This document shows positions 285 to 33,591 of a DNA stretch of 64,000 bases, piece after piece (position 1 is the first letter of the stretch; every line of letters begins with the position of its first letter). The position numbers and the translations under genes are program-made. The stretch lies in IMG/VR virus record IMGVR_UViG_3300009008_000002; one strand, written 5' to 3'. The notes under the pieces are model-generated. The model was not told where the DNA came from, searched no databases, and saw only the letters and a list, made by a program, of their open reading frames with translations. This DNA comes from a virus. Taxonomy: Duplodnaviria; Heunggongvirae; Uroviricota; Caudoviricetes.

Positions 285-332
285 GGTCGGCACAATCCCC
301 AATTTTAATTCGTCGCCGGTCGAATCGCCTCG

Positions 333-359
333 TTATTAAGGCTTATTAAGGCTTATTAA
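333..359. repeat. 10-bp tandem repeat TTATTAAGGC (about 2.7 copies)
   Basis: ttattaaggc-ttattaaggc-ttattaa, in an intergenic stretch bracketed by the direct repeat ttttaattcgtcgccg (about 303 and 426). Confidence 0.85.
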
Positions 360-455
360 CTATCATAGGGCATGGAAGACAGCAAACACACCTTATACTA
401 CGCGGGCGCGGGCGCGATCATCCTTTTTTAATTCGTCGCCGTCGCCGCTTGCCGG

Positions 456-785
456 TCAGGCATACAATCCCTCTTGCCTTGCATCAGCATCATAGACTAG
501 CCGGTGGCTTGAGTCTTGGTAGCAGAGGTTATATCCACAGTGGGGGCAATCTTCGGCATCATCGCTTACTACCCCATCGCATTGACCGCAGACAACCAGC
601 CCTTCCGGTTCTAGCTCAATGCCAGAGTCATAGCCATCGTGGTCTACCAGGGAGCGATAGACGTAATCCGCTTGGCAATCATCATCGAACCAGACGGTAT
701 CAATGAGTTCACGGGTGGTAGAGGAACCATCGCCGTATTCTTCGGTTCGATTGTTGAGAAAGACATTCCATGCTCGTCCAGGCAT
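456..785 (-). CDS. Hypothetical protein with C-terminal CxxC..CxxC zinc ribbon
   Basis: ORF track; CGQC..CPHC; start chosen at MPGRAW. Confidence 0.65.
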   Translation of the reverse strand: MPGRAWNVFLNNRTEEYGDGSSTTRELIDTVWFDDDCQADYVYRSLVDHDGYDSGIELEPEGLVVCGQCDGVVSDDAEDCPHCGYNLCYQDSSHRLVYDADARQEGLYA

Positions 786-885
786 CGCAGTATCCTCGAT
801 TTTAAGGTCGGTTGATTGACCCACTAACCCCAATTTTAATTTATGGTTCAGCCAGCCCCCGATTACCAGCGAGGGACAGCCACAG

Positions 886-958
886 TACTCCGAGGGGGAA
901 TCGAACCCGCCGCCACCAGATTGAAAGTCTGGTATCCTAACCGTTAGACTACCGGAGC
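886..958 (-). tRNA. tRNA-Glu (TTC)
   Basis: Acceptor GCTCCGG/TCGGAGT plus discriminator A; D arm; anticodon arm CCAGA-CTTTCAA-TCTGG; T loop GGTTCGATTCC; CCA not encoded. Confidence 0.92.
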
Positions 959-1061
959 ATATACGCCTTACGTGTGCGTATGTATCGTATGTCGTGCGCT
1001 TGTAACGCGCTTGTAGGTGCGTTGTAGAAGTTTGTAGACCCCAATTTTAAGATCATCGGGG

Positions 1062-1316
1062 TTATTCTTCCAACATATCCCCGATATATCTCACCAGGGC
1101 AGCAACAGCTTTTGCCGACACTTCCTTGCACCCTTCCCCGTGGGGGGTCACGTCGCCTCTAATTATTTCGCAAGCCAGTCGAATATCGTGGTAGTGTGGC
1201 ACTTCCTGCCTTGCGCTTGGCCCAAAATCGAAGCTAGGAAAGGTCATCGCGCCGCCTAGTGCTTCCAGCTTATCGGCGGCAGCACGGCAGAACGTGGTGA
1301 TTTCTGGTTTGCTCAT
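1062..1316 (-). CDS. Hypothetical protein
   Basis: ORF with a motif copy/GGAG upstream. Confidence 0.7.
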   Translation of the reverse strand: MSKPEITTFCRAAADKLEALGGAMTFPSFDFGPSARQEVPHYHDIRLACEIIRGDVTPHGEGCKEVSAKAVAALVRYIGDMLEE

Positions 1317-1441
1317 GGTCTGGTTGACTCCAATTTTAATCAGAGTGGTAGAACAGGTGCGCCACCCACACCCCTAGTGTGAAGGGGTAGAGTGTCCAGT
1401 GGAAATTAAATCAGCATCCAGGCAATAACGAGTGTCATGGG

Positions 1442-1717
1442 CTAGTAGACTCCGTGCCCGTCGCCGTTGGGGTCTGACGGGTCTGGTTCGTTGGTGCCGG
1501 TGGTGGGGCAGGGGATGATATTAACATCCCACTCACAGTAGTAGTGTTGTCCCCTATCATCCACAATTTTACTTGGGAACACTTGACTGCCCGCAATATC
1601 CTTGATTGTGGCATCAAGTTCTTCGCATTGGTGAAGTTTGGGGTTGCCATCCTCATAGGAGGGGCAATTAAACTCTTGGACTTCGCCATCGGTGAAGGTA
1701 ACGGTGATTTTTCTCAT
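1442..1717 (-). CDS. Hypothetical protein
   Basis: Start MRKITV after TAAAATTGGAGG. Confidence 0.65.
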   Translation of the reverse strand: MRKITVTFTDGEVQEFNCPSYEDGNPKLHQCEELDATIKDIAGSQVFPSKIVDDRGQHYYCEWDVNIIPCPTTGTNEPDPSDPNGDGHGVY

Positions 1718-1719
1718 AC

Positions 1720-3563: not shown

Positions 3564-4109
3564 TTATCCCCATCCTTTTTTCCTTGTCCAGATAGCCTCG
3601 AATCCGTTGGCATGGATTTCTTCAAGCCACAGGTCAAGCAGTTGCTTAATTTCCGGTGGCATGGGTTTTTCCCACCTACCTTTGTAGCACTTATCACTAT
3701 AGGCGAGGATTTCTACCCGTGTGAATTCATGTTCACGGGCGATTTTATCAATGCGGTCAAGGATAGCGTGGTCTAGGGCATCCATCGCTTCCCGTTTGTC
3801 CCACATTGACTGGAACACTTCTGCCCCTACAATTTTAAGTTGGGCGAGTTGTTCGTTAGCTTCCTTGACTATGGCATCCCGTTCGTCGGTCTGGTCTTCG
3901 TTGTAGTAGTTGACGTAGAAGGGGTCGCCGTGGGAATTCCACCAGAATTTACCACCAAAGGCCAGCTTGCCAGAGAATCGCCATTCGCCTCGTTCGTGAA
4001 GTCCATCGGTGAAGTGCGCGACAAAGTTCTCACGCATCGTTGGGTTGGCACCACACACCCTAACCAGGATAGTGTAGATAACTTCGGCGGTTTCGGGTCG
4101 AATGTTCAT
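3564..4109 (-). CDS. Conserved phage hypothetical protein
   Basis: 181 aa; EWRFSGKLAFGGKFW motif recalled from phage proteins. Confidence 0.75.
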   Translation of the reverse strand: MNIRPETAEVIYTILVRVCGANPTMRENFVAHFTDGLHERGEWRFSGKLAFGGKFWWNSHGDPFYVNYYNEDQTDERDAIVKEANEQLAQLKIVGAEVFQSMWDKREAMDALDHAILDRIDKIAREHEFTRVEILAYSDKCYKGRWEKPMPPEIKQLLDLWLEEIHANGFEAIWTRKKGWG

Positions 4110-4214
4110 GGTCTGGTTTCCCCAATTTTAATTAGGCGAGCGAGTGGAGCGTAGGGGTGGCAGTTTTCTAATCCCTCTACTGCTCTTGCCACATATATCA
4201 CTCACAGCCCAATT

Positions 4215-4478
4215 TTAATGTTCTCTGCCGGTCAATACCGAACCACCCAGCGTAGACGGGTCGGGTCGGTCTTCGTCTTCGTGTGTCGCAAAACAGGAGT
4301 CACAAAGGACACTGACGACATTATTCGCCACACTTTGCAGTTCCCCACACTTATCGCAGGGCAACCATTGACGGGGTTCTTTTGTATCACCCCAATCTAC
4401 GGGTGGCGCTTCCAATCGTTCCGTTTGGAGATTGAAAGTAATGGTGACTTCGCCACTTGGACTAATTGTTCCCTTCAT
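4215..4478 (-). CDS. Hypothetical zinc-ribbon protein
   Basis: CDKC..CDSC; bounded by motif copies. Confidence 0.7.
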   Translation of the reverse strand: MKGTISPSGEVTITFNLQTERLEAPPVDWGDTKEPRQWLPCDKCGELQSVANNVVSVLCDSCFATHEDEDRPDPSTLGGSVLTGREH

Positions 4479-4496
4479 GGTCCTACTTCCCCAATT

Positions 4497-4667
4497 TTAA
4501 CTTGTGAAGTTTTCATTCTCGACCAACACGCCTACATCGTCTTTCTCGATTTCGGCATCCCCATCGTCTCGAATGGTTGCCTCGAACACTTCGCCTACCT
4601 CTAACAGTTTGACTTTGTTATCATGCAAGCAATTGTAGTAGCCGGTGGCAAGAATGGTGATTTGCAT
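4497..4667 (-). CDS. Small hypothetical protein (56 aa, below the ORF-track cutoff)
   Basis: MQITILATGYYNCLHDNKVK...ENFTS*; fills the gap between two motif copies. Confidence 0.6.
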   Translation of the reverse strand: MQITILATGYYNCLHDNKVKLLEVGEVFEATIRDDGDAEIEKDDVGVLVENENFTS

Positions 4668-4669
4668 GG

Positions 4670-4825
4670 TCAGTTCGCCCCAATTTTAATTCTTCGAGTG
4701 ATTAGGCACTTGGCAGCGTGAACAGACTTGACCGGGATTTGGTCATAGTCGGGTGTCTGCACTCTCACGGTGCCAGCGTTGAAGTTTTCGTGAATCCACC
4801 AGCCTTTGTAGCCAAACGTGTGCAT
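4670..4825 (-). CDS. Small hypothetical protein
   Basis: Start MHTFGYKG after GGAG. Confidence 0.55.
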   Translation of the reverse strand: MHTFGYKGWWIHENFNAGTVRVQTPDYDQIPVKSVHAAKCLITRRIKIGAN

Positions 4826-4923
4826 TGTGTTCTCCAAACTAAAATCGGGGCGGTTGGTCACTGAGCCGTGGTCATAACGGTGTGACGTGTGGCGAATAAT
4901 ACCTTCCCCGCCCCAATTTTAAT

Positions 4924-5238
4924 TCAGAATACGATGCAAAGGTCTTTGGTCATTTTGACGGTGACGGTGAACCCTTCCCCTAGTCTGGATGATACCATAC
5001 TTTTAATTGTGTCGGGGTGAAGGTGAATCATGCTTTGCGTGGTCATCACTTGGAAGGTGGGTTGTCCTTCCGTTGCGACGTGGGACACCTTGAATTTCGT
5101 TTGGACGGCATCCTTGATAACGGAGGGTGCCATTGTGACGGTGATTTGCCACGTTTGCAGGTAGTGATCGACTTGAACCGTCTTGCCTCTTGGGGGCTTG
5201 GTTCCATCGGCGTATTGGTGCGTCATCATCATGGTCAT
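4924..5238 (-). CDS. Hypothetical protein
   Basis: ORF bounded by motif copies. Confidence 0.65.
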   Translation of the reverse strand: MTMMMTHQYADGTKPPRGKTVQVDHYLQTWQITVTMAPSVIKDAVQTKFKVSHVATEGQPTFQVMTTQSMIHLHPDTIKSMVSSRLGEGFTVTVKMTKDLCIVF

Positions 5239-5355
5239 GGTTGCTCCAATTTTAATTGCAGGCGAAAGGGGAGTCAGAGTATTTCACCACTCGGCTATTT
5301 GTTCTGATTTCCACCGTAGTTGGAAAGGTCACTACTCCCTTCCGCCCCAATTTTA

Positions 5356-5952
5356 TTAGGCGGCTTGTTGCATCCCGTTCCACAATGAACAAGACACTTC
5401 CCAACCATCCCAGTCTGAATAGTCGTAAGCGTAGAAGTTTTGCGGAACTATTTGCGACCACCCCACAAGTGAACCATTAGTCGCATAACAGCGAATTTGT
5501 CGGCTTGCAGGGTAATAAATCGCCGTTCGATAGGTGTTTCGGTTGAAGTGTTGCAACCCCTGTTGAGCCAACACTAAATCTTGCCTTGACGGATACCAAC
5601 CGTCATGTTCGTGTCCTGATTCATAGGTGAATCTATGTATTGCTTGTCGCAATTGGTGGTAGTCACGAATCAAGACGGCATAAGGGTGTCGATTGAAAAA
5701 GTCTTGCAGCACCGCTATGCGAAACGTCCTCAACTCAATCGAACACACTTGGGCGGTAACATCTATGCCTAAATCGCCCCAAACCCAATTTTCAACTTCC
5801 CTTGCCGTAGACGCCGCATTGTTGCCGGTGTAGGAAGGGTGCCCCAACCAGTGGCGCACAGCACTTCGTTGATTGTTCCAAACAACACCAACATAATTAC
5901 CGCCCAACTCTGAATAGACTGCTGCATGGGGTTGACCAACTACTCTTGTCAT
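5356..5952 (-). CDS. Hypothetical protein
   Basis: 198-aa ORF bounded by a motif copy and a variant. Confidence 0.75.
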   Translation of the reverse strand: MTRVVGQPHAAVYSELGGNYVGVVWNNQRSAVRHWLGHPSYTGNNAASTAREVENWVWGDLGIDVTAQVCSIELRTFRIAVLQDFFNRHPYAVLIRDYHQLRQAIHRFTYESGHEHDGWYPSRQDLVLAQQGLQHFNRNTYRTAIYYPASRQIRCYATNGSLVGWSQIVPQNFYAYDYSDWDGWEVSCSLWNGMQQAA

Positions 5953-6065
5953 CTCAGCTACTCCAATTTTTACCTCACAAGTGTTTTGAAAAAATGCAGG
6001 GGGGAAACCTTGGGGCTAGTAGTGCGCCTCGGTTTTAATTTATCGTTGGGTTGGTTGCCCCAATT

Positions 6066-6509
6066 TTATTTCTCGCCCATTTCCCGCAGAATGGTATCGG
6101 CGGTATCGGCGGGAAAGGGTTTCAGGTCATCAACGGGTTTGGGGGCATAGTAGACGTGCCCACAGTTTTTACATTCATCGCCATCAACCGCTACTCGGCA
6201 GATATTTGCACCACAATCGGGGCACTTGCCATCGGGGTAGTGGGTGTGCATGTCCGTAATGACAGTGACTTCTAAAATATCACCATCATGGTCAAGGGTG
6301 AATTCCCCAAGCAGGGATTCGCCTACTTCGGTGCATCCAATTTCATGCCCTTCTGCCGTGAACAGCACGCCTTGCGTCCAACATTCCTCAGTGGCGGGGT
6401 CAGTTGTAGCACAGACTTGGACAGCGAACCGCAACCCACCCGGAAAGGCGACTTCCTCATCGAACACGGTTTCACACTTGCCGTTGTCGCCATCGGGTTC
6501 GTTGCACAT
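6066..6509 (-). CDS. Hypothetical protein with zinc ribbon
   Basis: CPDC..CKNC; stop is the motif TAA; start uncertain. Confidence 0.7.
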   Translation of the reverse strand: MCNEPDGDNGKCETVFDEEVAFPGGLRFAVQVCATTDPATEECWTQGVLFTAEGHEIGCTEVGESLLGEFTLDHDGDILEVTVITDMHTHYPDGKCPDCGANICRVAVDGDECKNCGHVYYAPKPVDDLKPFPADTADTILREMGEK

Positions 6510-6526
6510 ATGGAGTGAACGACCAC

Positions 6527-6766
6527 CTATACCGATTCAAGTACCACACACGCCAACTTGCGAGTCAATAGCCTTCCCCCGACCGTCACATCTTCCGGTT
6601 CGTAACTGTCGCCACGTTCCGAGCAGTTGCACGCTTCCAGGTGAGCGTCAATGCCTTGATTGACAGCTTCGACTACGGCGGCGATTTCGCCGTCATCAGC
6701 TATCGTCATCGGGAACGGCTGGCCGTCCATTTTCTCCCGGATTTGACTGTAAGTGATTGTCAGCAT
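6527..6766 (-). CDS. Hypothetical protein
   Basis: ORF track; AVNQGIDAHLEA. Confidence 0.65.
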   Translation of the reverse strand: MLTITYSQIREKMDGQPFPMTIADDGEIAAVVEAVNQGIDAHLEACNCSERGDSYEPEDVTVGGRLLTRKLACVVLESV

Positions 6767-7112
6767 GTTTCAGCCCTTCCTGCCCATTCCAACAAGATTA
6801 TATCGTCTTCGTCGATTTCGTCGGCCAGAGATTGCAACTCTACAATTTCTCCGTAACTGATACGCTCGGCTTCAATCTCCCCTCGAAGATAATCCAGCCT
6901 TGCCTTGATTTCGTCGGCGGTCATGTTTCATTCCCCTTTCGTCAATTAATTGCAGCGAGAAGGATGGACAGGACGAGTATTAAAATCGCCCAATCAATCC
7001 AGTTGTTACGTGGCGGGTCCAATTTTAATTCCAAGAGAGAGGGGGGATACGGTCGCAATCCCGCCACCCCCATAGGGGGCTGTTTATAGACACAGCACAA
7101 TCCCCCACTCCC

Positions 7113-7388
7113 TTACGCAGCTTCCCTAACAGGTTCGGGGCGCTTGATTGACGTAATGTTATTCCGTGCGGCCAACCAGTAGGGGTCAAAACCGGGCACG
7201 GTCACAATCTGCTTGTCCTTCATGCGATAGAAGCAGGTTTCGGTGACGGTCTGACGATTGACGCGCCGAACACGGACGTATCCCCGCAGGGTGCGGCCCT
7301 TGTAGGTCACAGCATCCCGTCGTTCGGTGCCACGGAAGATACGAAACTTCTTCCGCTTGCCTTCCAAGACTCTTACGAATGGGGTCAT
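7113..7388 (-). CDS. Basic hypothetical protein
   Basis: ORF coupled to the upstream gene. Confidence 0.7.
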   Translation of the reverse strand: MTPFVRVLEGKRKKFRIFRGTERRDAVTYKGRTLRGYVRVRRVNRQTVTETCFYRMKDKQIVTVPGFDPYWLAARNNITSIKRPEPVREAA

Positions 7389-7870
7389 GTTTCTTCTCCA
7401 TCGGAGGTTTCAGGGGTTTCTTTCTGCCCTTCTAACTCCAATTTTAATTGTTCGTGTTGCCGTCTACGATATTCCAAGTTCTTCTCTTGAATCGAGCGAA
7501 CCAACTTGGAATTGTCATTCCCTATCATGCGGGGGTGGAATGGTCGGTCACGTCGGGAAGTGATAATTAAATCTTCCAACTCCGACTTTGTAATTTCCAC
7601 GAATCCAACCGCAGCAATCAAGTGGATTTTATCATCGTAGAGAATCACATCCCCCATACTGAGGGAGTAGGTTGTGTTGTGGGATGGTTGACCACCCGAA
7701 AAATCATTCTGCCCATACTGGAAAGCTAAGTCCAGAATTTCGTGATCAGCTTTCAGGTGTAGCTCGTTCTCGTTGACAGGAATTTCAACGAGGCGCTGAT
7801 ACGGTTGACCGGACGGGTTATCGTCATCATCCGTATGCGACAAAACTAGGCAGCGAATGGTCATGCTCAT
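7385..7870 (-). CDS. Conserved phage protein (SLSxGDV motif, YodL-like)
   Basis: YSLSMGDVI motif. Confidence 0.65.
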   Translation of the reverse strand: MSMTIRCLVLSHTDDDDNPSGQPYQRLVEIPVNENELHLKADHEILDLAFQYGQNDFSGGQPSHNTTYSLSMGDVILYDDKIHLIAAVGFVEITKSELEDLIITSRRDRPFHPRMIGNDNSKLVRSIQEKNLEYRRRQHEQLKLELEGQKETPETSDGEET

Positions 7871-8118
7871 ATCGGGTTGACTCCAATTTTATTTAGCGTT
7901 GCGGATAGCGCCGTTAGCGTAGTAGACTCGCGCCAATCCCGTTTGGTCTTCCCACCACTCGTCGGCTTCCACTACATCGTCGGTAGCCAGGGCGACATAC
8001 CATGTCCAGGTGTCACCCTTCCCAGGTTGATAGCCTAAGCAGCAGAACCCTTTGCCGCAATTGTGAGCGGCAGTCTGTTGTTCCTTGTTGCTCTGAACCA
8101 CCCCAATTTTATTAGCCA

Positions 8119-8628
8119 TCATGCGGCCTCTTTTACGATGGAAAATCCGTGTTCGTCTTTTTCCTTTGCCACACCCAGAACCCAATCGTTCCAGCGTTCC
8201 AGGCAAGGAATGACAACTTGGTGAAGGTGGTCGTCGGGAGTTCGCCGGTTGCCACGGTCGGCAACGGCAGCTACCATCAGGTCGTAGTCGTGATATTCAA
8301 GGATTGCCCAATCGCAGTCTTCCTCGAATTCGTAGACGTAGACGTTGCCGCAGACGGGTTCCTCGACTTTAATTGTAGGTTCCTTGGCCCACTCCAATTT
8401 TGTTTGGGTGACAAGGATATACCCACCGTGACCAGGGGTGCTAACCCACCAGCAGTCCCCAAACTTACATTTGAGCTTGGATGAACCCTGAATCTTGCCC
8501 CACCCTACCATGCTATTAAATGCAAGGTTGCGGGGGTTGAGTAGCTTTCCATCCTCGAAAACCATCGTGACGTAGGTTTTGCGGGCGGAATACATCGTGT
8601 AGCCGTGAAATCTTACTCGTTGTTTCAT
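8119..8628 (-). CDS. Conserved hypothetical protein
   Basis: STPGHGG...FEEDCDWA motif recalled from mobile-element proteins. Confidence 0.7.
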   Translation of the reverse strand: MKQRVRFHGYTMYSARKTYVTMVFEDGKLLNPRNLAFNSMVGWGKIQGSSKLKCKFGDCWWVSTPGHGGYILVTQTKLEWAKEPTIKVEEPVCGNVYVYEFEEDCDWAILEYHDYDLMVAAVADRGNRRTPDDHLHQVVIPCLERWNDWVLGVAKEKDEHGFSIVKEAA

Positions 8629-8676
8629 CGCTAACTCCGTGGGTTTGATTGTTGGAGTTCCCTACCGTCCCCAATT

Positions 8677-8961
8677 TTATTTGCGGGTCAGCTTGGGGTC
8701 CACGTAGTAGAATACCCGTGACTCATCGGGGAACGTATGGTCAGTTCCACCGCTAGGGTCACGAATGATACCAGGGGGATGATTGTTTGGCAATTCCCTT
8801 GCTTCGTAGTAACCGAATCCCGCATAGACACCAGCATCATGCAGGACAGATTCTAACAGAGAATTCCAACCATCCCGCTTGCTTCGTTCGCAAGTGGAGT
8901 GCTTGTTACGCTTGTTGACTTCATCAATCAGCTTACGAATTGGGTGAGTTTTCCTTGCCAT
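8677..8961 (-). CDS. Hypothetical protein
   Basis: Bounded by motif copies; LLESVLHDAGVYAGF. Confidence 0.75.
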   Translation of the reverse strand: MARKTHPIRKLIDEVNKRNKHSTCERSKRDGWNSLLESVLHDAGVYAGFGYYEARELPNNHPPGIIRDPSGGTDHTFPDESRVFYYVDPKLTRK

Positions 8962-9641
8962 GTCCCGTCGCCTCCAATTTTAATGGGTGGTCGTCGCAGG
9001 TTTCGTGTCCCTTGGTGGTCTTATGCCAGATGGGGCATTTTGCGGCATTATCAGTGGAAGTGAGAGAATCCCGCTTCCAGTGTGGACAATTAGAACAGTC
9101 CATAATTCTCGCCTATGCCCATTTTCTCTGCGAATTTAACCGCAGCATCTTGACTGTAGAACCATGCGGCATCTTTCCACTCTACCCATTTCCCTTGCCG
9201 GGTCAGATAGAGGTCTTCGGTCAGACTGCCTTTTCGGATTTTAACTCGATTGCTCATGGCATCCTCACCCCAATTTTAAGAGGCGCTTGATTGACCGCGA
9301 GATAAGTTGGGGGGAGACACGTCCAGGCAAACCGAATTCAGCAACCCACAAAATGGTGAAAACTGCCCCTACGCAGAACACAAAAGGTTCATTCATGGTT
9401 GAATACCTCGTTCCAATCGGGTTCAGGTTTGCGGTTGCGAAGTTCCTGCAATTCACGGTTCGCCCGGTGAATTTTATTTACGGGGCGTTTCCTTCGTTCT
9501 CGCTCATCATGCTCGGCTTGAGCGAAAATCAGGTTAATATCGTCGGTGGTGGGTTCATCGTTCATTAAAATCAGACTCCTACACGTCGCTAACCAGTGTT
9601 CGGTCGTTGACCTACTAACTCTCCGACTGCCCCAATTTTAA

Positions 9642-10417: not shown

Positions 10418-10435
10418 GTTCGGATTGCTCCAATT

Positions 10436-21982: not shown

Positions 21983-21984
21983 GG

Positions 21985-24527: not shown

Positions 24528-24547
24528 TGTTTCGTTTGACCCCAATT

Positions 24548-24844: not shown

Positions 24845-24850
24845 AATTCC

Positions 24851-25102
24851 CTAGCAGATGTTTTCAACGTAGACAGGACGCTTCGGTTTGGGTTCGGGCT
24901 TGACGGGAGGGAGCCGCTTTAATATCGGTGTGGCTTCCGGTTCGGTTGCCATCGGCGGCATCGTCACTTCCACTTCGGGAAGCAACAACTCGATGATTCG
25001 GTCATTGGTTTCGTTCGTGTGACTGTTCTCTGCCAGCCCAATTTTATATCCGGCTACCAGTCCAACACACAACAACGCTACACACAACAAGGTCGTCTTC
25101 AT
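24851..25102 (-). CDS. Secreted or membrane hypothetical protein
   Basis: Signal-peptide-like N-terminus. Confidence 0.65.
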   Translation of the reverse strand: MKTTLLCVALLCVGLVAGYKIGLAENSHTNETNDRIIELLLPEVEVTMPPMATEPEATPILKRLPPVKPEPKPKRPVYVENIC

Positions 25103-25341
25103 TGACTTTCTTCTCCATCAGTGGAATCAACTTGTTTAACTTCAACTTCCGACTCTGCTCCAATTTTATCTAAATTTGAGGCGATAGTTCCTGCCACAAT
25201 CAGACAACCGACACAAGCGCAAATGGCAATGAAACCCAGAATTGATAGACCAGCGTTTCCGTCATGCGAGCCTTCGTGCCGGTGACAAAATGCCTACCAC
25301 TAAGGCAAGCAATCCGCACGCACAAAGGAAATAGAAATAAA

Positions 25342-25668
25342 TCACAGTCTACTCCGGTTGTAGATTACGTCATCGTGGAACGGGGGCCACGGTAACATTG
25401 TTGTGGTGCCATCCGGCAATCTAATGTCGATCAGCTTTTTGACCTTTTTATATTCATATCGGTCACGAATTGACTTCGGGACTTGTTGCCAATCCTTAAA
25501 TGCCACTCGACCGTAAGGACCAACACCCTGATTCGGGCGGATACCTTTAATTTGATCCCAACTCAACCCATGTTCCTCTAGCCACTCATAGTATTTGAGC
25601 ATGTCTAAGAGGCGCTCGGATTCGGCACGCTTTGCCTGTATATCATCAACAAGGGTAGTTACGCTCAT
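25342..25668 (-). CDS. Hypothetical protein
   Basis: ORF in the gene chain. Confidence 0.7.
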   Translation of the reverse strand: MSVTTLVDDIQAKRAESERLLDMLKYYEWLEEHGLSWDQIKGIRPNQGVGPYGRVAFKDWQQVPKSIRDRYEYKKVKKLIDIRLPDGTTTMLPWPPFHDDVIYNRSRL

Positions 25669-25863
25669 TTGGCCCGAAACTCCGGTTCGTGTTCGTCAGT
25701 CCACTCGCCAAATTCGTTGTCCACCAGAAGTTGTGCAATCTGACGTTCAGCTTGGCTTAGGTCATCACGCATAATATGACTGAGACGACGAGCAATTTCC
25801 TGCAATAATCCCGAAAGACCCAAGGACTGTCTCTGTAACTTAGATACCAAGTCTTCAGGCATT

Positions 25864-26124
25864 TTAATTCCTTTCAGGGTCAAGGGGTTGGGGTCGGGAA
25901 GCCATAAGTAAATATCCCCCTTCATGGACAGGGGAAATGTCGCCACATTCAGCACACTCGCCTTCATCGTAGAGGGTGTTTGCTTCTGCAAACGTGCAGC
26001 GTGCGCCACATGCTGGACAGGTGAACTTAAAATATACCTGTGCGTTGCCGCCCATGCTTCGCATAGCAGCCTCAGCATGTTCGACCAACTCTTGTCGTGG
26101 TAAATCCCGTGGTTTGTCGCTCAT
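25864..26124 (-). CDS. Zinc-ribbon protein
   Basis: FKFTCPACG..CAECG; start after a motif copy. Confidence 0.7.
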   Translation of the reverse strand: MSDKPRDLPRQELVEHAEAAMRSMGGNAQVYFKFTCPACGARCTFAEANTLYDEGECAECGDISPVHEGGYLLMASRPQPLDPERN

Positions 26125-26205
26125 AGCCCGATAGCTCCAATTTTAACAAGTTGCAAATCCAGACCCAATTTTAATTGGGGAATCATGCTGGCGTTGTGAA
26201 GTCGT

Positions 26206-26664
26206 TTAATTGTCATAGTTCCTTGTCCCGTTGCAATCGGGGTAGTTCATGCAACCCCAAAACTTGCTCTTTTTATTTTTACGCTGACTGCGCAATGCCA
26301 TCAACTTGCTACACTTCGGACACGTTGGACCCAACATTTCCCGCCAAGTCTCAAGGCGATTTTCCAGATTCTTGCGCCAACCCTTGACACGATGAACCCG
26401 TTTCATCAAGCCTACAATCTTCGGCTTGCCATCAGGACCACGAACAAATAAAACGAGGCGAATAGCATCCTTGCCCTTGGCACGGCTATTGCCATCCGGG
26501 TTGATTCCCGTGTAGACTCGCAGACTGACTTTAATTCCATTGTAGTCGTAGAGTCTGCCATAGACTAGCTCGGTTGTCCCGTCGATTTCCATGCGCTGAA
26601 ACTTGTGGCGCAGAGTGAGGAACGGCCCCATTTCTTCGGAAGTTACATTGACGTATTCAGGCAT
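26206..26664 (-). CDS. Protein with C-terminal topoisomerase-type C4 zinc finger
   Basis: CPKCSKLMALR...FWGCMNYPDC. Confidence 0.75.
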   Translation of the reverse strand: MPEYVNVTSEEMGPFLTLRHKFQRMEIDGTTELVYGRLYDYNGIKVSLRVYTGINPDGNSRAKGKDAIRLVLFVRGPDGKPKIVGLMKRVHRVKGWRKNLENRLETWREMLGPTCPKCSKLMALRSQRKNKKSKFWGCMNYPDCNGTRNYDN

Positions 26665-26665
26665 C

Positions 26666-26929
26666 TTAGTGCATCCGTTTGTCGTTACCGGGATCGGCAA
26701 TTGGAAGAAACTGGTTTGGTCTGTCGCTGATTATCCCACCATCGCTTAGGCTCATCAGGCACGGATATTTACTATCACCATCATCGTGCATTGTGAGCCG
26801 CGCAACTACAAATCTATCGCCCTCTGGAAACTCCAAGAGAAAACAGGGACAGCCGCCTCTGTATTTTTCCCATTTTTCAAGGTCGATATTTAAGTCTATT
26901 GGCGAACCAGAAATCCACTCTTGATTCAT
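26666..26929 (-). CDS. Hypothetical protein
   Basis: ORF in the gene chain. Confidence 0.65.
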   Translation of the reverse strand: MNQEWISGSPIDLNIDLEKWEKYRGGCPCFLLEFPEGDRFVVARLTMHDDGDSKYPCLMSLSDGGIISDRPNQFLPIADPGNDKRMH

Positions 26930-27207
26930 TGGTTAGACCCCAATTTTAATAGTTCCCGGTGTGTCGGGAACCGGGGTGTAATTTCTTCGGCAATCGCTCG
27001 ATGCGCCGCTTGTCCCTCTTCCCTACTGTGATCAGGGTGGGCATTTGACCAGTCAGTATATCGTCGGGACAATTCCCTACCAAAACCAGGGCGAGCATCG
27101 GGATTAAATGGGCCAGGGTCACGCCCGAACATGGGGTGGTGTGGGCCAGTCCAGGGTTCGCGTTTGCGTCGTTTTGTTTTCATGGTCAACCATCCCCAAT
27201 TTTATTT

Positions 27208-27717
27208 CTAATACCCAAAGGTGCCACTGACGCCAATCCTTACATGAGTGGGACGACGGTAGGAAGATTGACCCCCAAGACTTCTAAATTCGGAATCCCA
27301 ACGGGAGAATTCAGATTGTCGGGGACGATACGGTTGAACGACATTGATTGCCTTAATAGGAAGATGAAGACCGGCATAATACCGCCCGTCAATTCCTCTT
27401 GTCCATTGTGGGTATCGTTGGACCTTCCAAGTGTTAATGTCGTGCCAATAGGGATGAATCCGAACAATCCACCCTAGCTTATTGTGGATTATTTCGAGTT
27501 CTTTATGGCGATTGAATCGACTGTAAATGTCATTGGAAACCACATAGTTTCCACGTAACCAACAGCCACCACTTGAATCGACCACCAATGCCTCTTTGTA
27601 GACTCTTGCGCTGGCCCCAACGGGCATGTCGCGCAGATACAAGGTGGATTTATCCAAATGGGATGGGATGGGGGCTTGCCCGCAGACAAGCATAGTAGCT
27701 AGGATTATTGTGTTCAT
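27208..27717 (-). CDS. Secreted hypothetical protein
   Basis: Signal-like N-terminus; start after a motif variant. Confidence 0.7.
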   Translation of the reverse strand: MNTIILATMLVCGQAPIPSHLDKSTLYLRDMPVGASARVYKEALVVDSSGGCWLRGNYVVSNDIYSRFNRHKELEIIHNKLGWIVRIHPYWHDINTWKVQRYPQWTRGIDGRYYAGLHLPIKAINVVQPYRPRQSEFSRWDSEFRSLGGQSSYRRPTHVRIGVSGTFGY

Positions 27718-27792
27718 GGTCCTTACAGCTACAATTTTAAGTAGCCAACGTCAGCCCAATGGCGAGCGACCCACTTTTTAATTGCGAATCGT

Positions 27793-28008
27793 TCACTCAT
27801 CGAATTCATCCTCTTCAAGTTCGTCAAAGTCACCCGCACGGATCTTTTGACGGACCTGTTGACGGCTTTTTTTGCCAGTTTTAACTTTGGGACGGTTGCC
27901 ATCCTCAAAGTCATCTTCCCAACGCCAGTTGCTACTGCCACGTTTGTTTTTGCGTTCCATTTCTCGAAACTTAAAAAGAGGGATCTTGATACTTCTCACG
28001 GTGTCCAA
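27793..28008 (-). CDS. Small charged hypothetical protein
   Basis: Basic/acidic composition; start uncertain. Confidence 0.5.
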   Translation of the reverse strand: MDTVRSIKIPLFKFREMERKNKRGSSNWRWEDDFEDGNRPKVKTGKKSRQQVRQKIRAGDFDELEEDEFDE

Positions 28009-28432
28009 GAGCGAATGTTTGACGACTGGTAAGGGGTTCGCCTTTTCGTCGCCAACATCCGTCCTTACGCCGGGTAACTACAATTTTAGCAGCATCCGGC
28101 ATCGGACTATATTCGTAAGTTTGACTCTCGGAGAAACCATTGTTGTCCGTCCGAACGGCATTGTCCGGTTGAACAACGATTTTCCTCTCGCTGCAAACTT
28201 CAACAATGGTAAATGGGTAACGGTCAGAACCTACTCCCTGAGTAGCACCATCACCAACTTTGGGAACGTAAGCAGTCACTTCTTTTTCCTTGACCTTTCG
28301 GGCGTATAGGATTTTGGAATCAGGAGCGGTAAGTGTCCATGTTACTTTTGCAATTGCCGCTTCCGAATCAGAAGCCTCAACTATATCTCTACAAACGAAA
28401 CCGTTTGCCTGATAAGCAACCTCGAATTGCAT
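27971..28432 (-). CDS. Conserved phage protein
   Basis: PKVGDGAT...SDRYPFTIVEV...REKYQDPSF. Confidence 0.75.
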   Translation of the reverse strand: MQFEVAYQANGFVCRDIVEASDSEAAIAKVTWTLTAPDSKILYARKVKEKEVTAYVPKVGDGATQGVGSDRYPFTIVEVCSERKIVVQPDNAVRTDNNGFSESQTYEYSPMPDAAKIVVTRRKDGCWRRKGEPLTSRQTFALGHREKYQDPSF

Positions 28433-28447
28433 TGTCCCATCCCAATT

Positions 28448-28828
28448 TTAAGCGGCCACTTCGGCACGCTCTAACACTCGTTTTTCTGTTACATACCAGC
28501 CGGGGCCATCCTTTCGCCACCGATGATAAACGATTTTCAAGTATTTATCGCCCTTTTTAACTTTGCCATCCTTGTGATCACGTCGGGCGACGTGCGTTTT
28601 CCTACTTTTGACCACTTCGCCACCCTCAACCACTTCGGCACCACAGCACGGAGAACACACCACCCATTCGTGGTGGGTGCCACGAGCGCCCCAGTATTCG
28701 TAAGAACCGATACCGTGATCTTGTAGCTCACCCCTACAACCTGCGCCACAATCTCCGCAGATACCATCGGGTAGGTCTTCTGGTTCGATTTTCGGCTTGG
28801 AACTAAGCATCTTGTGCCATCGCCTCAA
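28448..28828 (-). CDS. Hypothetical protein
   Basis: DHGIGSYEYWGA; stop is the motif TAA. Confidence 0.7.
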   Translation of the reverse strand: MRRWHKMLSSKPKIEPEDLPDGICGDCGAGCRGELQDHGIGSYEYWGARGTHHEWVVCSPCCGAEVVEGGEVVKSRKTHVARRDHKDGKVKKGDKYLKIVYHRWRKDGPGWYVTEKRVLERAEVAA

Positions 28829-29399
28829 AAACTTGTTTCGTTTGTGTGACCCGTTGACCGGACTGTTTCATGGACTCCAATTTTAACAGCACGGTCTTTG
28901 CCTCGTTAATTGCTGTCTTCAGGGTGTCAAGTTCACCAACGTCCCAATAAGCAGGGCCATTCTGGCTAATTTTAACATTCTTTTCCTTGTAGTGACCCCA
29001 TCCATCGGTAAACCCAACCAGACTCACCACAATTAAACTCCGAGATTCGTTCAAACAAATCAATGTCTGCATCAGCCTTCCGGTCGGCGGCTATCTGTTC
29101 GGGAGTTCTTTTTCTACTTCTTTTTCTACTAGGCGACATTTTAATCCTCGAATGGATCTTCGTTCATCGGGAAACTACCCTGAATCTTGCCACATTGCAG
29201 GCACCACGTAAATTCAACGTAGTCACCCCCGCCGATACCACAATCACGGGGAACATAACCATCCAAGTCACGATGCGGTTCATTCACCTCCGCAACATGA
29301 CACAAATCACTACACTTGGCGCTCGCAGCCAAAAGACGGGTAGAACCACACTGGTCGCATGTTTTCATTTTGCCCTCTACAATTTTAAGTAGGGTGTTT

Positions 29400-29924
29400 T
29401 TATCCATGACATTCGGGAAATAAATTTCCCCACTCTTGGTCAAGTGCCTCTTGTTCTTTCCTCTGCTCTTGGAATTCTGTCGTTATCTTCTCTACGTCTG
29501 TAGTGATAAACGGCCAACCATCTTGTCTCGCCCAAGACAAGTCAACGTCACCGTAGGCTTTTTCCTTGCCTACTTCATTCTCGAATTCCTGTAGCCGTTC
29601 GGTGCGTTCAGCATCAAAAGCAGCAGCACACACACGGCAAGGAAACTCCCAGTAGCCCGCAAAGTCCAGCCCACCATGACCGAAAGTTAAACCACCGTGG
29701 ATTCCTGTAGAACAAGAGCATTGAGGGTTGCCACACAACCGCGCATTCTCCATGTCATTCGCGGAATACTTATTAAATAAGTGGGTGCGTCCCGCCTCAT
29801 TATCCTCGACCTGTTCAATGAGTCCATGCGTATTTAATACTGAAGGTTTCTTATCCTCCACTACGCAAAGGGTAGAATGCGCAACACCATCGGCATCATA
29901 CTCAATATGGTGGACGACTCTCAT
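29400..29924 (-). CDS. Hypothetical protein
   Basis: 174-aa ORF. Confidence 0.7.
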   Translation of the reverse strand: MRVVHHIEYDADGVAHSTLCVVEDKKPSVLNTHGLIEQVEDNEAGRTHLFNKYSANDMENARLCGNPQCSCSTGIHGGLTFGHGGLDFAGYWEFPCRVCAAAFDAERTERLQEFENEVGKEKAYGDVDLSWARQDGWPFITTDVEKITTEFQEQRKEQEALDQEWGNLFPECHG

Positions 29925-30109
29925 CGCTTACCTCTACAGTGTGACGTGGAATTTCAGCTTCCCCGCAGGGGAACGAGGCGGCTACATGCCAGGGTTTACA
30001 ATCACACTGGCTACACCGAAAATCTAAACCCTCAACATCTTCGGGGACAAAGCAATGCGTATTAAAATTCGCTTTACGCTCTTCTTCTGTCCCGTCAAAC
30101 GGGATTGGC

Positions 30110-30535
30110 TTATTCACCAACACTGGGATTCTCCGGTCGGTATTCACGGTAGGAAATTAAAAGTCGCCAGACTTCGTGCGGGATTCGCTCTCGGCAACCC
30201 GTTTCCATTGCGTTAGCATAGTCGTGGGCTTGCCTGAGACAACCATCTTCCAACAGATTGGCCAGGAACTTCAATCGTTCAACGTCGGCGTCGTAATCCG
30301 TGATTTTATCGGCAACACCAACCACCAAAACCGCAGCTTCGGTGTGATTTAATTCTCGACCACCCTGCAAGACAATGCGCAGACTATCGCAATCGACGTG
30401 GAAGTGTAGACCGTGTTTCTCCAAGAGATCGCCCAGAGCGTTTCCAAGGTCTAGTGTTTCCTGATTGATTTCACCATCGCCACCACGAATCACAGACAGG
30501 TCTTCAAGAAACCTCTTCGTCGCTGACATTTTCAT
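30110..30535 (-). CDS. Hypothetical protein
   Basis: ORF in the gene chain. Confidence 0.7.
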   Translation of the reverse strand: MKMSATKRFLEDLSVIRGGDGEINQETLDLGNALGDLLEKHGLHFHVDCDSLRIVLQGGRELNHTEAAVLVVGVADKITDYDADVERLKFLANLLEDGCLRQAHDYANAMETGCRERIPHEVWRLLISYREYRPENPSVGE

Positions 30536-31250
30536 CTTCCTTATCAGGCGGGGCAGCTTGCCCAGAATTAAGTGCGGTTACGGCAGCAGCAAGGTCTTGC
30601 TTTTTATCTGCCATTGAAACATCGGTTTCAACTGGTCGGGAACGACTCCAACCATGACTTTCCTCATGGCCGGGTTCATACGGAGCATTAGGGTCGGCAG
30701 GGTCAAATAAAAGTCCCATGCCAGCCGCCATGCTCACTTGTTCCGGTGATACGCCTTCACCCCCAATTTTATCAAGCGTCGGTTTTACATTTCGTTCAAA
30801 CCGCTCTTGGAATCGGTCGCCAAATCCCGCTACCTCTTTTAGCACCGCTTTCATGCCCCCCTCTTCAAAGTGTTTGTCTAGTTCTAGCTCGACAAACATG
30901 CAAAAAGGATATGCCATAAGGGGGCTTAACTTGCTTGCTACCACAGTTGTTAAATGTTTTTTGTAGCGTTCGTAATACTTGCGCTGATATTTAATTGGCA
31001 AGTGAACGATGATTGCTCCCTTGCACCACGTAAAGACTCCCCAACATACCAAAAATGGCAGCGCAATCAGAAACAGAACCAACCACAAGACAAAAATGCC
31101 AATGGCAAGCGGCACACGAATGGGCATGGGAAATCGCTGTAGAAATACACCCACCTTTTGCTGAATCTTGATATTGAGAGGAATTTCCTGATCAGGAATT
31201 TCCGGTTCAGCACCAGTTTCGTGTCGATTGACGGCAATTTTATCTGTCAT
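30504..31250 (-). CDS. Membrane protein
   Basis: Long hydrophobic segment around aa 45-80. Confidence 0.75.
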   Translation of the reverse strand: MTDKIAVNRHETGAEPEIPDQEIPLNIKIQQKVGVFLQRFPMPIRVPLAIGIFVLWLVLFLIALPFLVCWGVFTWCKGAIIVHLPIKYQRKYYERYKKHLTTVVASKLSPLMAYPFCMFVELELDKHFEEGGMKAVLKEVAGFGDRFQERFERNVKPTLDKIGGEGVSPEQVSMAAGMGLLFDPADPNAPYEPGHEESHGWSRSRPVETDVSMADKKQDLAAAVTALNSGQAAPPDKEDENVSDEEVS

Positions 31251-31270
31251 TCCCTCGATACTCCAATTTC

Positions 31271-31309
31271 AAAAAAAAAGCCCCCGCCGCTTGTGGCGGT
31301 CGGGGGCTT
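31271..31309 (-). terminator. Rho-independent terminator
   Basis: AAGCCCCCG-ACCGCC..GGCGG-GGGCTT stem plus U9 after gene 31329. Confidence 0.85.
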
Positions 31310-31328
31310 GGCTTGGAACGGATGGGAT

Positions 31329-32216
31329 TTACGCCGCTTCCTCACCCATGAGGATTTCGGTGAAAGCGGCCAAAACCTGTTTGTTTCGCTCGTTCTCGGA
31401 CTGAGCCGCAGCGAACTTGACGTGGGACAACGCGCGTTGTGGCTTAACCACCGTGAGCAACGCCCGCAACTGGTCGGCGTCTTCGCAGTAGTTTGCAGCA
31501 CGTTCCATGAAACCAGCCTTGACCTGATAGACGAGTTTCTTCGTAATGCAAGCCGCTCGTTCATCGGCGGTCAGAGGTTCCGGTTGACTGGCACCCGTGG
31601 CAACAGCCAAGAGTTTCTGTGCAGCCGATTTCTCTTCATCGCTTGCCGGGACAAATTCACGGCCACCTTTGCCGCTAATCCACTTGCCCTGGATAAGCTC
31701 ATTGAACGGTTTCAGTTCCGTAACCATTTCCGCTTCGACGTTTTCATCCATGAGTTGTTCGGCGGTTTCCTGATCGAAACCAACCGCCATGAATGCGCCG
31801 GTGACAGCACCACGGGCAGAGTTGTTTGCTTCATCCAACGGCAGACTTTGAACCTTGAAGGTAGCCTTCAACTGGAAGATGGCGCTGGTATCGACCTTGC
31901 CACCCTTCTTAATCTGCATCTTGGGATTGGATGGCTTCGTGCGGTTCGCAAACCACTGGTCGGTCAAATGCTGCCAGACCTGTTCCTTGAGTTGAGCGCC
32001 CACAAGGTCTTTGCGCTCGGTCGTAATCTTGGAGCAAATGTGCGCCCCGGCAAATTCCACCATCAATTCGGTGTCGGCCTCGATGGTCGGTCGGTCGTCG
32101 TGAGCATCTTTCGCCGGTTTCTTCTCCGGTACAGCATCACCTAGCATACCAAGCATGTCCATGCCGGATGGTGCGGGAGCCTCTTCGACCTTTTTCTTCG
32201 CTCTGCGTTTTGCCAT
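31329..32216 (-). CDS. Hypothetical protein, probably highly expressed
   Basis: About 295 aa; GC3-biased codons; AAGGA SD; own terminator. Confidence 0.8.
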   Translation of the reverse strand: MAKRRAKKKVEEAPAPSGMDMLGMLGDAVPEKKPAKDAHDDRPTIEADTELMVEFAGAHICSKITTERKDLVGAQLKEQVWQHLTDQWFANRTKPSNPKMQIKKGGKVDTSAIFQLKATFKVQSLPLDEANNSARGAVTGAFMAVGFDQETAEQLMDENVEAEMVTELKPFNELIQGKWISGKGGREFVPASDEEKSAAQKLLAVATGASQPEPLTADERAACITKKLVYQVKAGFMERAANYCEDADQLRALLTVVKPQRALSHVKFAAAQSENERNKQVLAAFTEILMGEEAA

Positions 32217-32493
32217 TACTTCGTCCTTTCTGAAGGGTTTTTCTGGCATACTCGAAACTGTGAAACCGCTCAAACTACAATTTTATCTCGAATTTAATTC
32301 GCCCCTCTGCTGGCTGAATTGAGGTTGTCATGCCCAATTTTTTCAACCCTCACTAGCGGGGGCCGATCAGAATCGTTTTACTTCATCATCGTCGCTGTTG
32401 CCATCCCATACCCCTTATACCCTGCATGGTTCGTGCGTGCGCGGGCGGGCGCGGTATACAATAATGTTGAATCGGCGGTTTCAATATATTAAG

Positions 32494-32781
32494 TCACGCC
32501 CAACTTGGCATATCGTGTGCCGCCCGCCTATCATAAACGGGTTTGCCTTTTTCGCAATATACCTTCAAACCAGCATGAAACCCTGCCAACCATTGCCTTG
32601 TGTTCGCAGCACTCTCGGCATCCCCAGCAAAAGACAACCCAAATCGCATTAAACCACGTTCTGATCGGTTGCCTTGCATACCAGCATCATAGCCTTTCCG
32701 GTATGCCCAGTGGCTAGTGTCAGCAGCATCTAGGTAATGCTGGTGTTCTTTATCGGCGGATTGCCATTCGTGTTCAGCCAT
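32494..32781 (-). CDS. Hypothetical protein
   Basis: AYRKGYDAG..WLAGF, weakly RMF-like. Confidence 0.65.
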   Translation of the reverse strand: MAEHEWQSADKEHQHYLDAADTSHWAYRKGYDAGMQGNRSERGLMRFGLSFAGDAESAANTRQWLAGFHAGLKVYCEKGKPVYDRRAAHDMPSWA

Positions 32782-33102
32782 TTATGCTTCGTTCTCTGAG
32801 AGGACGTATTGAACAACAGTGTCATCGTCGGGGTCGTCAATAGAAACCGTGAAGATTAAATCTCTGTTATTGACACCCACCCTAACCTCATCAAGGTTCT
32901 TCAAGGTGATGGTCGCAGTGCTAACATCAGGAATGACCCTGACAATCTCACCATCTGCGATCTCAACAGAGAATTTAATAGAACTGGGGTCGGGAGCTTC
33001 AAACTCAGCATGATCAAGGAAAATACCAAAGGCTTTTTCCAAGAACTGGCATTGCTCAGAATTTTCCACCACGAACGTCACGTTGGCTTCTTCCAGTTTC
33101 AT
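32782..33102 (-). CDS. Hypothetical protein
   Basis: Start MKLEEA after GGGAGAAGGGA. Confidence 0.7.
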   Translation of the reverse strand: MKLEEANVTFVVENSEQCQFLEKAFGIFLDHAEFEAPDPSSIKFSVEIADGEIVRVIPDVSTATITLKNLDEVRVGVNNRDLIFTVSIDDPDDDTVVQYVLSENEA

Positions 33103-33191
33103 TCCCTTCTCCCGTATGCGTATACGTGTGTCTCGCATGTATTATACATGCAGTGCGTATGTAGAAGTTTGTAGACCCAATTTTACCAAAG

Positions 33192-33300
33192 ACCCCGGTA
33201 GGCTGCGGGAAATCGCTCTCTCCAAGCACTCATCGAAAGTTTAACCTTCGATAAATGGCGATTCTCGACCCGTGGGTTTTTACAGCAACCTACCTTGGGT
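33192..33300 (-). ncRNA. Candidate ~110-nt structured RNA
   Basis: Closing helix GGTAGGTTGC/GCAGCCTACC; nested AATCGC/GCGATT and ATCGAAGG/CTTTCGAT. Confidence 0.45.
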
Positions 33301-33310
33301 GTTTTAATAT

Positions 33311-33390
33311 GATTACGGTGTGGGAGTTGAACCCACAATCGGCTTAGTCCATAGGCCACCTACTCTGACAAGAGCATTGTGCCCGCAATC
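33311..33390 (-). ncRNA. Degenerate tRNA-like element
   Basis: 8-bp closing stem GATTGCGG/CCGTAATC; T arm GTGGG-TTCAACT-CCCAC; two internal hairpins; non-canonical D and anticodon arms. Confidence 0.45.
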
Positions 33391-33591
33391 ATTGTGGAAT
33401 CTTACGAGGCGCACGCCTCACTTTTTTTCTTTCTGGTTTATCGCTTTCACAAGACTTGCAATACCTATGATCCCTACCGGCATAGAACTTCGATTGCTTA
33501 AACTTGCCGCAGCCGACGCAATACCACAAGTCTTTTTGTTTGCTCATAGCAGCCCTACTCCAATTTTAGCATATTTCGGGCCATTGTGAAG

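Follow-up and report, generated by a model that had tools for sequence, protein, structure and literature searches.

The late promoters of phage T4 and the middle/late promoters of phage phiEco32 consist of a single box that is read by a phage-encoded minimal sigma factor, gp55 and gp36, respectively, and the promoters of the single-subunit polymerases of the T7 type span about 20 bp and carry a GGGAGA start. In the T4-type phages RB49 and phi1, promoter-early stem-loop (PeSL) cassettes of about 100 bp have been described, which bring together a sigma-70-type -35/-10 promoter, an upstream AT-rich tract, a G/C stem-loop terminator, a Shine-Dalgarno (SD) sequence and an ATG, and for which both recombination and mini-circles have been shown experimentally (Arbiol et al. 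2010, PMC2839356). Among NCLDVs (nucleocytoplasmic large DNA viruses), the mimivirus early promoter AAAATTGA, or 'MEGA-box', precedes about half of the genes, at no fixed spacing but no more than 150 nt from the start (PMC5294985). The present analysis concerns a short oriented motif, TAAAATTGG(A/G)G, that punctuates a long array of small genes in a 64,000-nt stretch of a tailed phage (IMG/VR record IMGVR_UViG_3300009008_000002; the whole stretch is called the window below). Judged from its sequence and from that of its relatives, the motif is probably a compact, single-box and orientation-specific promoter that is proper to a clade of huge phages whose probable hosts are Planctomycetota.

The motif is highly enriched and almost completely confined to one strand. 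On the plus strand CCAATTTTA occurs 74 times, which corresponds to 74 exact copies of TAAAATTGG on the minus, gene-bearing strand, and the other strand holds a single copy (41971-41979); the bias of about 74 to 1 that had been counted by hand in an earlier inspection of the letters alone (hereafter, the sequence-only reading) is thus borne out. Dinucleotide-preserving shuffles (n=100) yielded a mean of 1.03 copies and a maximum of 4. The enrichment also survives a codon-aware null, a check that the same reading had proposed: when synonymous codons were permuted inside each called gene and intergenic bases were shuffled, 0.6 copies per shuffle appeared at new positions and the total never exceeded 12. 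Sixty-seven of the 74 copies form the array and the remaining seven lie between 36 and 57 kb (Table 1). The logo of the 74 copies reads aaT-TAAAATTGG-RG, with G in 43 and A in 28 of them at position 10 and G in 61 of 74 at position 11. From -45 to -4 it shows zero conservation, so that neither a -35 box nor an extended -10 is present. Variants with one mismatch display the same polarity (46 on the gene strand versus 10 on the opposite one), TAAAATTGT being the commonest (17). Within the window, G (94:4) and T (30:5) are the only bases enriched after AAATTG, and a second class of copies with T at this place, referred to as the TA-type, has the same core (Table 1). Identity between copies typically extends over some 11-14 nt, and no dyad or hairpin was found in the motif. 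Literature searches for the motif string returned primers and barcodes only, and a 14-base version, scanned against viral contigs, gave single chance matches alone among the matches listed.

The copies are placed close to gene starts. For 76% of them an independently called start follows within 120 nt, versus 32% of random positions, and within 15 nt the figures are 38% and 4%. Of the 88 called genes of the array, 46 are preceded by the exact 9-mer at a distance of up to about 120 nt, and AAATTG[GT] is found ahead of 55. In 35 of the 74 copies a start codon follows the GG of the motif after 4-14 nt, and in 20 of these it does so after exactly 12 nt, with the GGRG ending 10 nt upstream of the ATG. 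Most of the 35 start-proximal copies are followed by no further SD-like sequence, and for these roughly 35 copies the GGRG probably serves as the SD. The earlier statement that GGAG or GGGG sits 5-12 nt before the next ATG therefore describes this half of the copies approximately; the other 39 have no start codon 4-14 nt downstream, which is not what would be found for an SD or ribosome-binding site confined to coding starts. Downstream of many of these non-proximal copies comes a leader of 40-110 nt, in many cases C/A-rich, with its own GGAG-type SD 6-9 nt before the ATG (examples in Table 1); the copy at 52616-52624 (-), for instance, precedes a 44-nt leader with a 9-bp hairpin and its own SD, and then a 334-aa gene. 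In ordinary genes of the window, the spacing of the SD-like core varies broadly, from 5 to 10 nt, and the A/T preference upstream of it covers just 2-3 nt, so the TAAAATT part is not a general feature of ribosome sites here. In accordance with the sequence-only reading, the TAA of the motif provides the stop codon of the upstream gene at the same 13 junctions that it had listed. Since an upstream reading frame reaches about 41 copies, this proportion of about one third equals the one-in-three frame expectation and such stop use occurs at chance level. The idea that the motif joins unrelated genes also holds: no pair among the 155 called open reading frames (ORFs) of the window matches at E<1e-5, so the motif has not spread by gene duplication.

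In addition to protein-coding genes, the motif stands ahead of non-coding units and right past terminators (Table 1). On one hand, a copy precedes tRNA-Glu(UUC), which argues against a purely translational signal, and the next copy past this tRNA follows at 830-838. The ATG-free unit at 24450-24550 is a candidate small RNA or attenuator; the copy next past it (24405-24413, -) lies 12 nt before an ATG and would switch expression on again. The unit at 19880-19991 begins, if the motif's second G is taken as its first base, with a stretch that pairs with its last bases directly before T6, and this closing stem hints, though weakly, at a 5' end located at the GG of the motif (bases 8-9). On the other hand, the copy at 21294-21302 is placed between a terminator-like T-run and an ATG, and variant copies likewise follow terminator-like sequences ahead of the genes starting at 31250 and 63806. 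At these terminator-motif-ATG sites, the motif alone is available to restart transcription.

Relatives of this phage were found through a conserved 306-aa protein (40-51% amino-acid identity), and some of the sequences stand under several labels across databases (L132=L140, L134=L144=L146 and L135=L145). One of them, G001, is a complete IMG/VR phage of 527,112 bp with a Terminase_6N protein and 59 tRNAs, which places the window in a clade of huge tailed phages. None of the relatives contains TAAAATTGG; they carry instead a related oriented motif, AATTGTAC(C/G). In the 20.8 kb of L132 this form is distributed 23:0 between the gene strand and the other one, with 0.75 copies expected, and L133, L135 and L142 show fewer copies with the same strand bias. 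G001 contains 59 copies versus 17 of a control pattern; they are densest in the first 55 kb, run in the direction of the gene blocks and flip strand with them. The core common to the window and the relatives is AATTG(T/G), and AATTG(T/G)AC is kept in the relatives. Since the window has TAA upstream of this core and G001 has an A-run plus G/A, the canonical -10 hexamer TAAAAT is not conserved. The relatives' motif has no SD-like bases, and purine-rich SDs come after it.

The geometry around this core is shared as well. Five sites of L132, and three to five of G001, have an ATG 13 nt past AATTG, and the geometry in the window is alike. Upstream of the orthologous anchor gene that encodes the 306-aa protein, a motif copy is found at 34-80 nt in every lineage, followed by unrelated leaders. 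The order terminator-motif-ATG recurs in L132/L140 (sites 7990 and 19990) and in G001. Moreover, a motif copy of L132 ends 2 nt before an amber-suppressor tRNA, a position that sets a limit to the start site and leaves no room for a translational role of this copy. Four of the 12 window genes that are conserved in relatives have the TA-type AAATTGTAG upstream, a tentative trend for this version to sit ahead of conserved genes. Five Planctomycetota genomes show no enrichment of the motif, and neither form is enriched in the unrelated huge phages LR756501 and LR745208, which share the radical-SAM gene, or in Tunturi_5, which shares the ligase; it is accordingly specific to the clade. A search of IMG/VR with the 334-aa protein as query produced no relative.

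From these observations we infer that the motif acts on DNA as a promoter, with transcription starting within or just past it, between bases 8 and 14, a range bounded by the tRNA that abuts the copy in L132 and by the positions of the SDs. The oriented box is conserved in core, position and geometry at 40-50% protein identity, and it directly follows terminators and precedes protein genes, tRNAs and non-coding units alike. The recognition core across the clade would be AATTG followed by T or G, and very short leaders would leave the start codon fixed 13 nt past it. In the lineage of the window, the form TAAAATTGG(R)G would have spread through the 33-kb block until it stood ahead of about half to two thirds of its small ORFan genes. 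There, the three bases past the core would have changed from TAC/TAG to GRG, placing an SD at the very start of the putative transcript. The GGRG tail would thus double as an SD 10 nt before the ATG, and promoter, ribosome site and start would be compressed into a unit of about 24 nt. The same box might also drive the tRNA-Glu, a few short non-coding units and the genes with longer leaders and their own SD. A promoter giving short-leader transcripts had been one of the proposals of the sequence-only reading and is the one best supported in substance; what has to be given up is its register, in which TAAAAT was a -10 hexamer. Its further proposal of a directional protein-binding site becomes trivially true if the binder is RNA polymerase or a sigma factor.

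The likeliest reader would be the host core polymerase together with a phage-encoded or phage-modified specificity factor. G001 encodes two proteins of the sigma-70 family (sigma70_r2), one of 357 aa in which only region 2 is detected and another of 190 aa that is ECF-like (extracytoplasmic function), and their presence counts in favour of a promoter. No T7-like polymerase family was detected in G001, in a search whose controls were uninformative, and no canonical beta/beta' (Rpb1/Rpb2) polymerase domains were detected there either. A HMMER search from the sigma lead retrieved homologues at 27-35% identity, where a word-based search returned the query alone; in a 221-kb contig with such a homologue, the motif was absent from the 21 kb inspected and no link to the phage of the window was seen. 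As for the window, the 304-aa ORF at 37793-38707 (-) combines a helix-turn-helix (HTH) or sigma-70 region-4-like domain with a C-terminus resembling HNH endonucleases (PHROG 374); this ORF is probably not a sigma factor but a homing endonuclease.

Known promoter architectures were compared with the motif. A housekeeping promoter of the sigma-70 type would place a -35 hexamer 16-18 bp upstream of the -10, within the region from -45 to -4 that carries no information, and a scan with the -35/-10 consensus found promoter-like pairs at the level of shuffles (29 versus 20 +/- 4.5). A -10 element would read TAnnnT with an invariant A at -11, or would be extended by a TG; the window copies read TAAAAT with no TG upstream, and G001 keeps AATTGTAC only. 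The motif was rejected as a -35 box because no -10 is conserved 17 bp downstream, a position inside the first codons, and an ECF-type two-box reading of GGAAT in G001 was rejected because nothing is conserved downstream of it. A literature search found no paper on a planctomycete promoter consensus.

Several points weigh against a promoter. A rigid distance of 13 nt to the ATG is more typical of a translational signal. In the absence of a -35 and of an extended -10, and with a -10-like TAAAAT that fails in G001, recognition would have to be non-canonical. The enrichment in G001 is only about 3.5-fold, and one of the copies there precedes the terminase gene. Few terminators separate neighbouring copies in the 1-20 kb region, so that 67 promoters would give rise to heavily nested transcripts. 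Finally, no sigma factor or polymerase is found among the ORFs of the 64-kb window, and the searches linked no reader protein to the motif. A bolder version, which we hold to be doubtful, would take the box as the initiator-like element of an unrecognised phage-encoded transcription machine, a polymerase or specificity factor unlike any known one, that starts RNA inside the motif, giving uniform 13-nt leaders, and the 24-nt promoter-SD-ATG unit as a joint that also captures and expresses new ORFans. If this were true, the clade would possess a minimal 'plug-and-play' gene cassette system with a logic comparable to that of giant-virus early promoters.

Other functions of the motif have to be weighed against the promoter. 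It is rather unlikely that it acts on RNA. In such a case, similar to that of T4 RegB or RegA, it would be either the site at which a phage endoribonuclease divides long early transcripts into units, namely mRNAs with 13-nt leaders, the tRNA and small RNAs, or an operator to which a translational regulator binds immediately ahead of the ribosome site. RegB of T4 reportedly cuts at GGAG in early SDs, and a selected RegA ligand is said to begin with AAAAUUGU. An orientation that is strictly that of the transcripts, a distance to the AUG that is fixed in three lineages and the scarcity of terminators between copies, which fits long precursors, would all suit such a site. Nevertheless, copies right past terminator hairpins would have no transcript to act on, and the same is true of those that head gene blocks at divergent junctions (22307-22317 in the window; 82992, 7038 and 40676 in G001). 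A translational operator would moreover have no role ahead of tRNAs, and no match to the RegA family was found in G001 or in the window, in a search for which the control genomes were uninformative. That the motif is purely an extended ribosome-binding module, made of an A/U-rich enhancer and an SD, with the TAA providing stop-start coupling, appears very improbable, even though 20 copies with a GGRG 10 nt before the ATG, 35 with it within 4-14 nt, the lack of any other SD-like sequence at most of these 35 and the upstream stop supplied by 13 copies are what such a module would produce. This explanation leaves aside the 39 copies with no nearby start, many of which are then followed by a separate SD, and those ahead of tRNA-Glu and of ATG-free units; furthermore, it is the core that is kept in relatives and not the SD-like bases, the stops arise at the frequency expected from frame, and ordinary SDs of the window do without the TAAAATT part. 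Accordingly, of the stop-plus-SD module put forward in the sequence-only reading, the SD half probably applies to about 35 copies and the stop half does not go beyond chance, with the motif also standing before a tRNA, non-coding units and leaders with an SD of their own.

The sequence-only reading had also offered a short recombination site. A primarily recombinational motif, at which ORFan cassettes would be gained, lost and shuffled through microhomology or with the help of a site-specific enzyme, on the model proposed for PeSL, is likewise very improbable, and a recombination joint would be at best secondary to the promoter role. It is true that the motif flanks unrelated ORFans, and that the small genes between shared syntenic anchors all differ between relatives, in blocks whose size differs as well (5.6 kb versus 1.6 kb for the same two anchors). 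In a 71%-identical relative (SRR28370465), two genes are adjacent that stand 16 kb apart in the window (from the gene list only), and copies in the cluster at 20.4-21.3 kb share up to 24 nt. By contrast, the typical identity of merely 11-14 nt between copies, the lack of a dyad or hairpin and the absence of any integrase or recombinase family from the window, except for one HNH/HTH homing-endonuclease-like ORF, speak against a joint; no structural variant is seen among 10 population contigs (99.9-100% identical), and a fixed distance to the ATG and conservation upstream of a conserved orthologue are features of expression. As regards any other oriented DNA signal, such as a Chi-like recombination hotspot, a primase site or a signal for packaging or for the polarity of replication, the extreme strand bias and the co-orientation over tens of kilobases are the sort of pattern that it would leave, yet we think it highly improbable. 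A signal of this kind would not be phased to gene starts, as 38% of the copies are within 15 nt (4% of random positions), its conservation upstream of one orthologous gene is not expected, and in G001 the strand of the motif flips with the gene blocks. A promoter thus remains the probable function of the motif.

Table 1. Motif copies and associated features of the window (plus-strand numbering)
Feature	Position(s)	Strand	Remarks
Array of 67 exact TAAAATTGG(R)G	299..33568	minus	about 1 per 500 bp, among about 88 small, mostly ORFan genes
Seven other exact copies: 36234, 37172, 39785, 49798, 52616, 56786, 57230	36234..57238	minus	each <=125 nt upstream of a gene start
Second class with the same core: 18 x AAATTGTAG (mostly tAAAATTGTAG)	3827..63568	minus	0 on plus, 0.56 expected, whole window
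Copies with long leader and own SD	10077, 8671, 7438, 9632, 13351, 20420, 25160, 52616	minus	
Motif copy (1041-1049), 82-nt leader, tRNA-Glu(UUC) (885-958)	885..1049	minus	
Motif copy and ATG-free unit of about 85 nt, ending in long hairpin and T8	24450..24550	minus	minimum free energy -29.8 kcal/mol, z = -2.05
Motif copy and unit of about 97 nt	19880..19991	minus	10-bp closing stem, z = -1.74
Terminator-like T-run, 4 nt, motif copy (21294-21302), 12 nt, ATG of 127-aa gene	21281..21330	minus	
306-aa anchor gene, no Pfam family	31329..32285	minus	TA-type motif copy 34 nt upstream of start; used to find relatives
155-aa host-marker ORF	57070..57537	minus	motif copy 57230-57238 inside gene region

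Some details of the array deserve mention. The copies at 20420 and 20729 have 24 nt in common, the longest identity of any pair, and belong to the local cluster at 20.4-21.3 kb. Pairs of copies 28-61 nt apart are found at 15942-16011, 20420-20488 and 26137-26173 (-); the first of them encloses a 13-codon mini-ORF whose stop is the TAA of the next motif. A leader common to two copies (950-1060 and 33090-33196, minus), one before the tRNA-Glu and the other before the gene starting at 33138, consists of 18 shared nt and then ACGCA-rich repeats, and it may be a shared regulatory leader. The ORF-poor stretches 21307-21682 and 11407-11685 (-), which the sequence-only reading had considered structured RNAs, each lie between motif copies, and the former ends in a terminator directly before the copy at 21294-21302; an Rfam search of the window detected tRNA only and nothing in these two stretches. 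At the single divergent junction of the window, the TA-type variant at 22307-22317 faces a minus-strand gene. It overlaps the complement of the SD of the sole convincing gene on the opposite strand (22328-22921, +; 197-265 aa, strong SD), and a minus-strand copy at 22912-22920 points into the antisense strand of that gene. Among the relatives, the whole locus of L136 carries dense oriented TCTTGGTCTAGGTCT-like repeats in place of many AATTGTAC copies. In the tRNA region of G001 (134-166 kb), GGGAGAAT(A/T)A-like sequences stand ahead of many tRNA genes and perhaps represent a second promoter class. Suppressor tRNAs are encoded by several members of the clade, namely CUA in L132 (2619-2693) and L133 (11020-11091) and adjacent CUA and UUA in G001 (167265-167425). 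Stop-codon recoding in part of the clade is possible on this basis; the standard code fits the window itself well.

Regarding the phage and its host, megablast against INPHARED found no DNA match for the window among deposited phages, an exact 40-mer had no counterpart in IMG/VR, and contigs identical to its DNA are present in several marine metagenomes. The 10 close population contigs, from four samples, are 99.9-100% identical to it and show neither indels nor structural variants. About 20 of 150 ORFs match any Pfam family. The recognisable proteins include a T4 gp30.3-family protein, a GroES-like protein, a WGR-domain DNA ligase, a radical-SAM enzyme, a nucleoside hydrolase and a glycosyltransferase, and there are PHROG matches. 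Residues 55-119, approximately, of the 155-aa ORF are 60-86% identical to a segment of a protein that hundreds of Planctomycetota genomes encode, and the best 80 of 372 genomic matches all belong to Planctomycetota. This ORF is likely a host-derived fragment, which points to a marine planctomycete as the probable host.

Planctomycetota phages and their expression signals are almost unknown. In this context, the core AATTG(T/G) is a candidate clade-wide promoter that would mark transcription units and could serve as a signature for binning fragments of these huge phages, and the 24-nt unit would offer a ready-made minimal expression cassette for planctomycete genetics. The switch from TAC/TAG to GRG coincides with a large expansion of ORFans and would be a compact case of how new genes are wired into an early programme. 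By itself, the finding reveals no new principle. The description of the array as an undescribed expression system was overstated, given that phage-specific promoter regulons and the promoter-SD cassettes of PeSL are known; the kind of system is known and phage-specific promoters are not new as such. What is new is the sequence, a single box at a rigid distance of 13 nt from the ATG, the way in which it is conserved and has diverged within a clade of huge phages of planctomycetes, and a density that comes to about one copy per gene.

When compared with described systems, the motif is closer to single-box phage-sigma promoters, or to the initiator-proximal type used by phage polymerases, than to the host's housekeeping promoters. 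Like the promoters read by gp55 and gp36, it has one short element of 8-9 bp near the putative start, no -35 and a phage-specific character. Its sequence, however, is unrelated to theirs, its conservation runs further downstream, to about the inferred start, and it is found roughly once per gene in an ORFan block rather than in late structural operons. With T7-type promoters it has in common a conservation that would reach into the first transcribed bases, and a G-rich start (GGRG here) that offers purines to the ribosome; unlike it, those promoters span their full 20 bp or so and depend on a polymerase of which the search in G001, with its uninformative controls, gave no sign. The string is nearly identical to AAAATTGA (7 of 8 bases), which also lies upstream of about half of the genes of a giant virus. 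Mimivirus is a eukaryotic virus with its own polymerase, whereas here we deal with a tailed phage with bacterial-type SDs, terminators and tRNAs; the Terminase_6N protein and the lack of detected Rpb1/Rpb2 in G001, the planctomycete marker and the matches to PHROG and to T4 gp30.3 separate the two, and the resemblance is regarded as a coincidence. Integron attC cassettes differ in turn, as the motif has no dyad and no integrase family occurs among the 150 ORFs. The closest described analogue is PeSL. In both cases a repeated unit ending in an SD and a start codon stands ahead of many small ORFans in a hyperplastic region, and the genes between conserved anchors are wholly different between relatives. 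The conserved part in the window is limited to 9-14 nt in place of the composite of about 100 bp and lacks both a -35 and a built-in stem-loop, and it is the SD-ATG part and the ORFan context that the two share: the same logic, built with a different anatomy.

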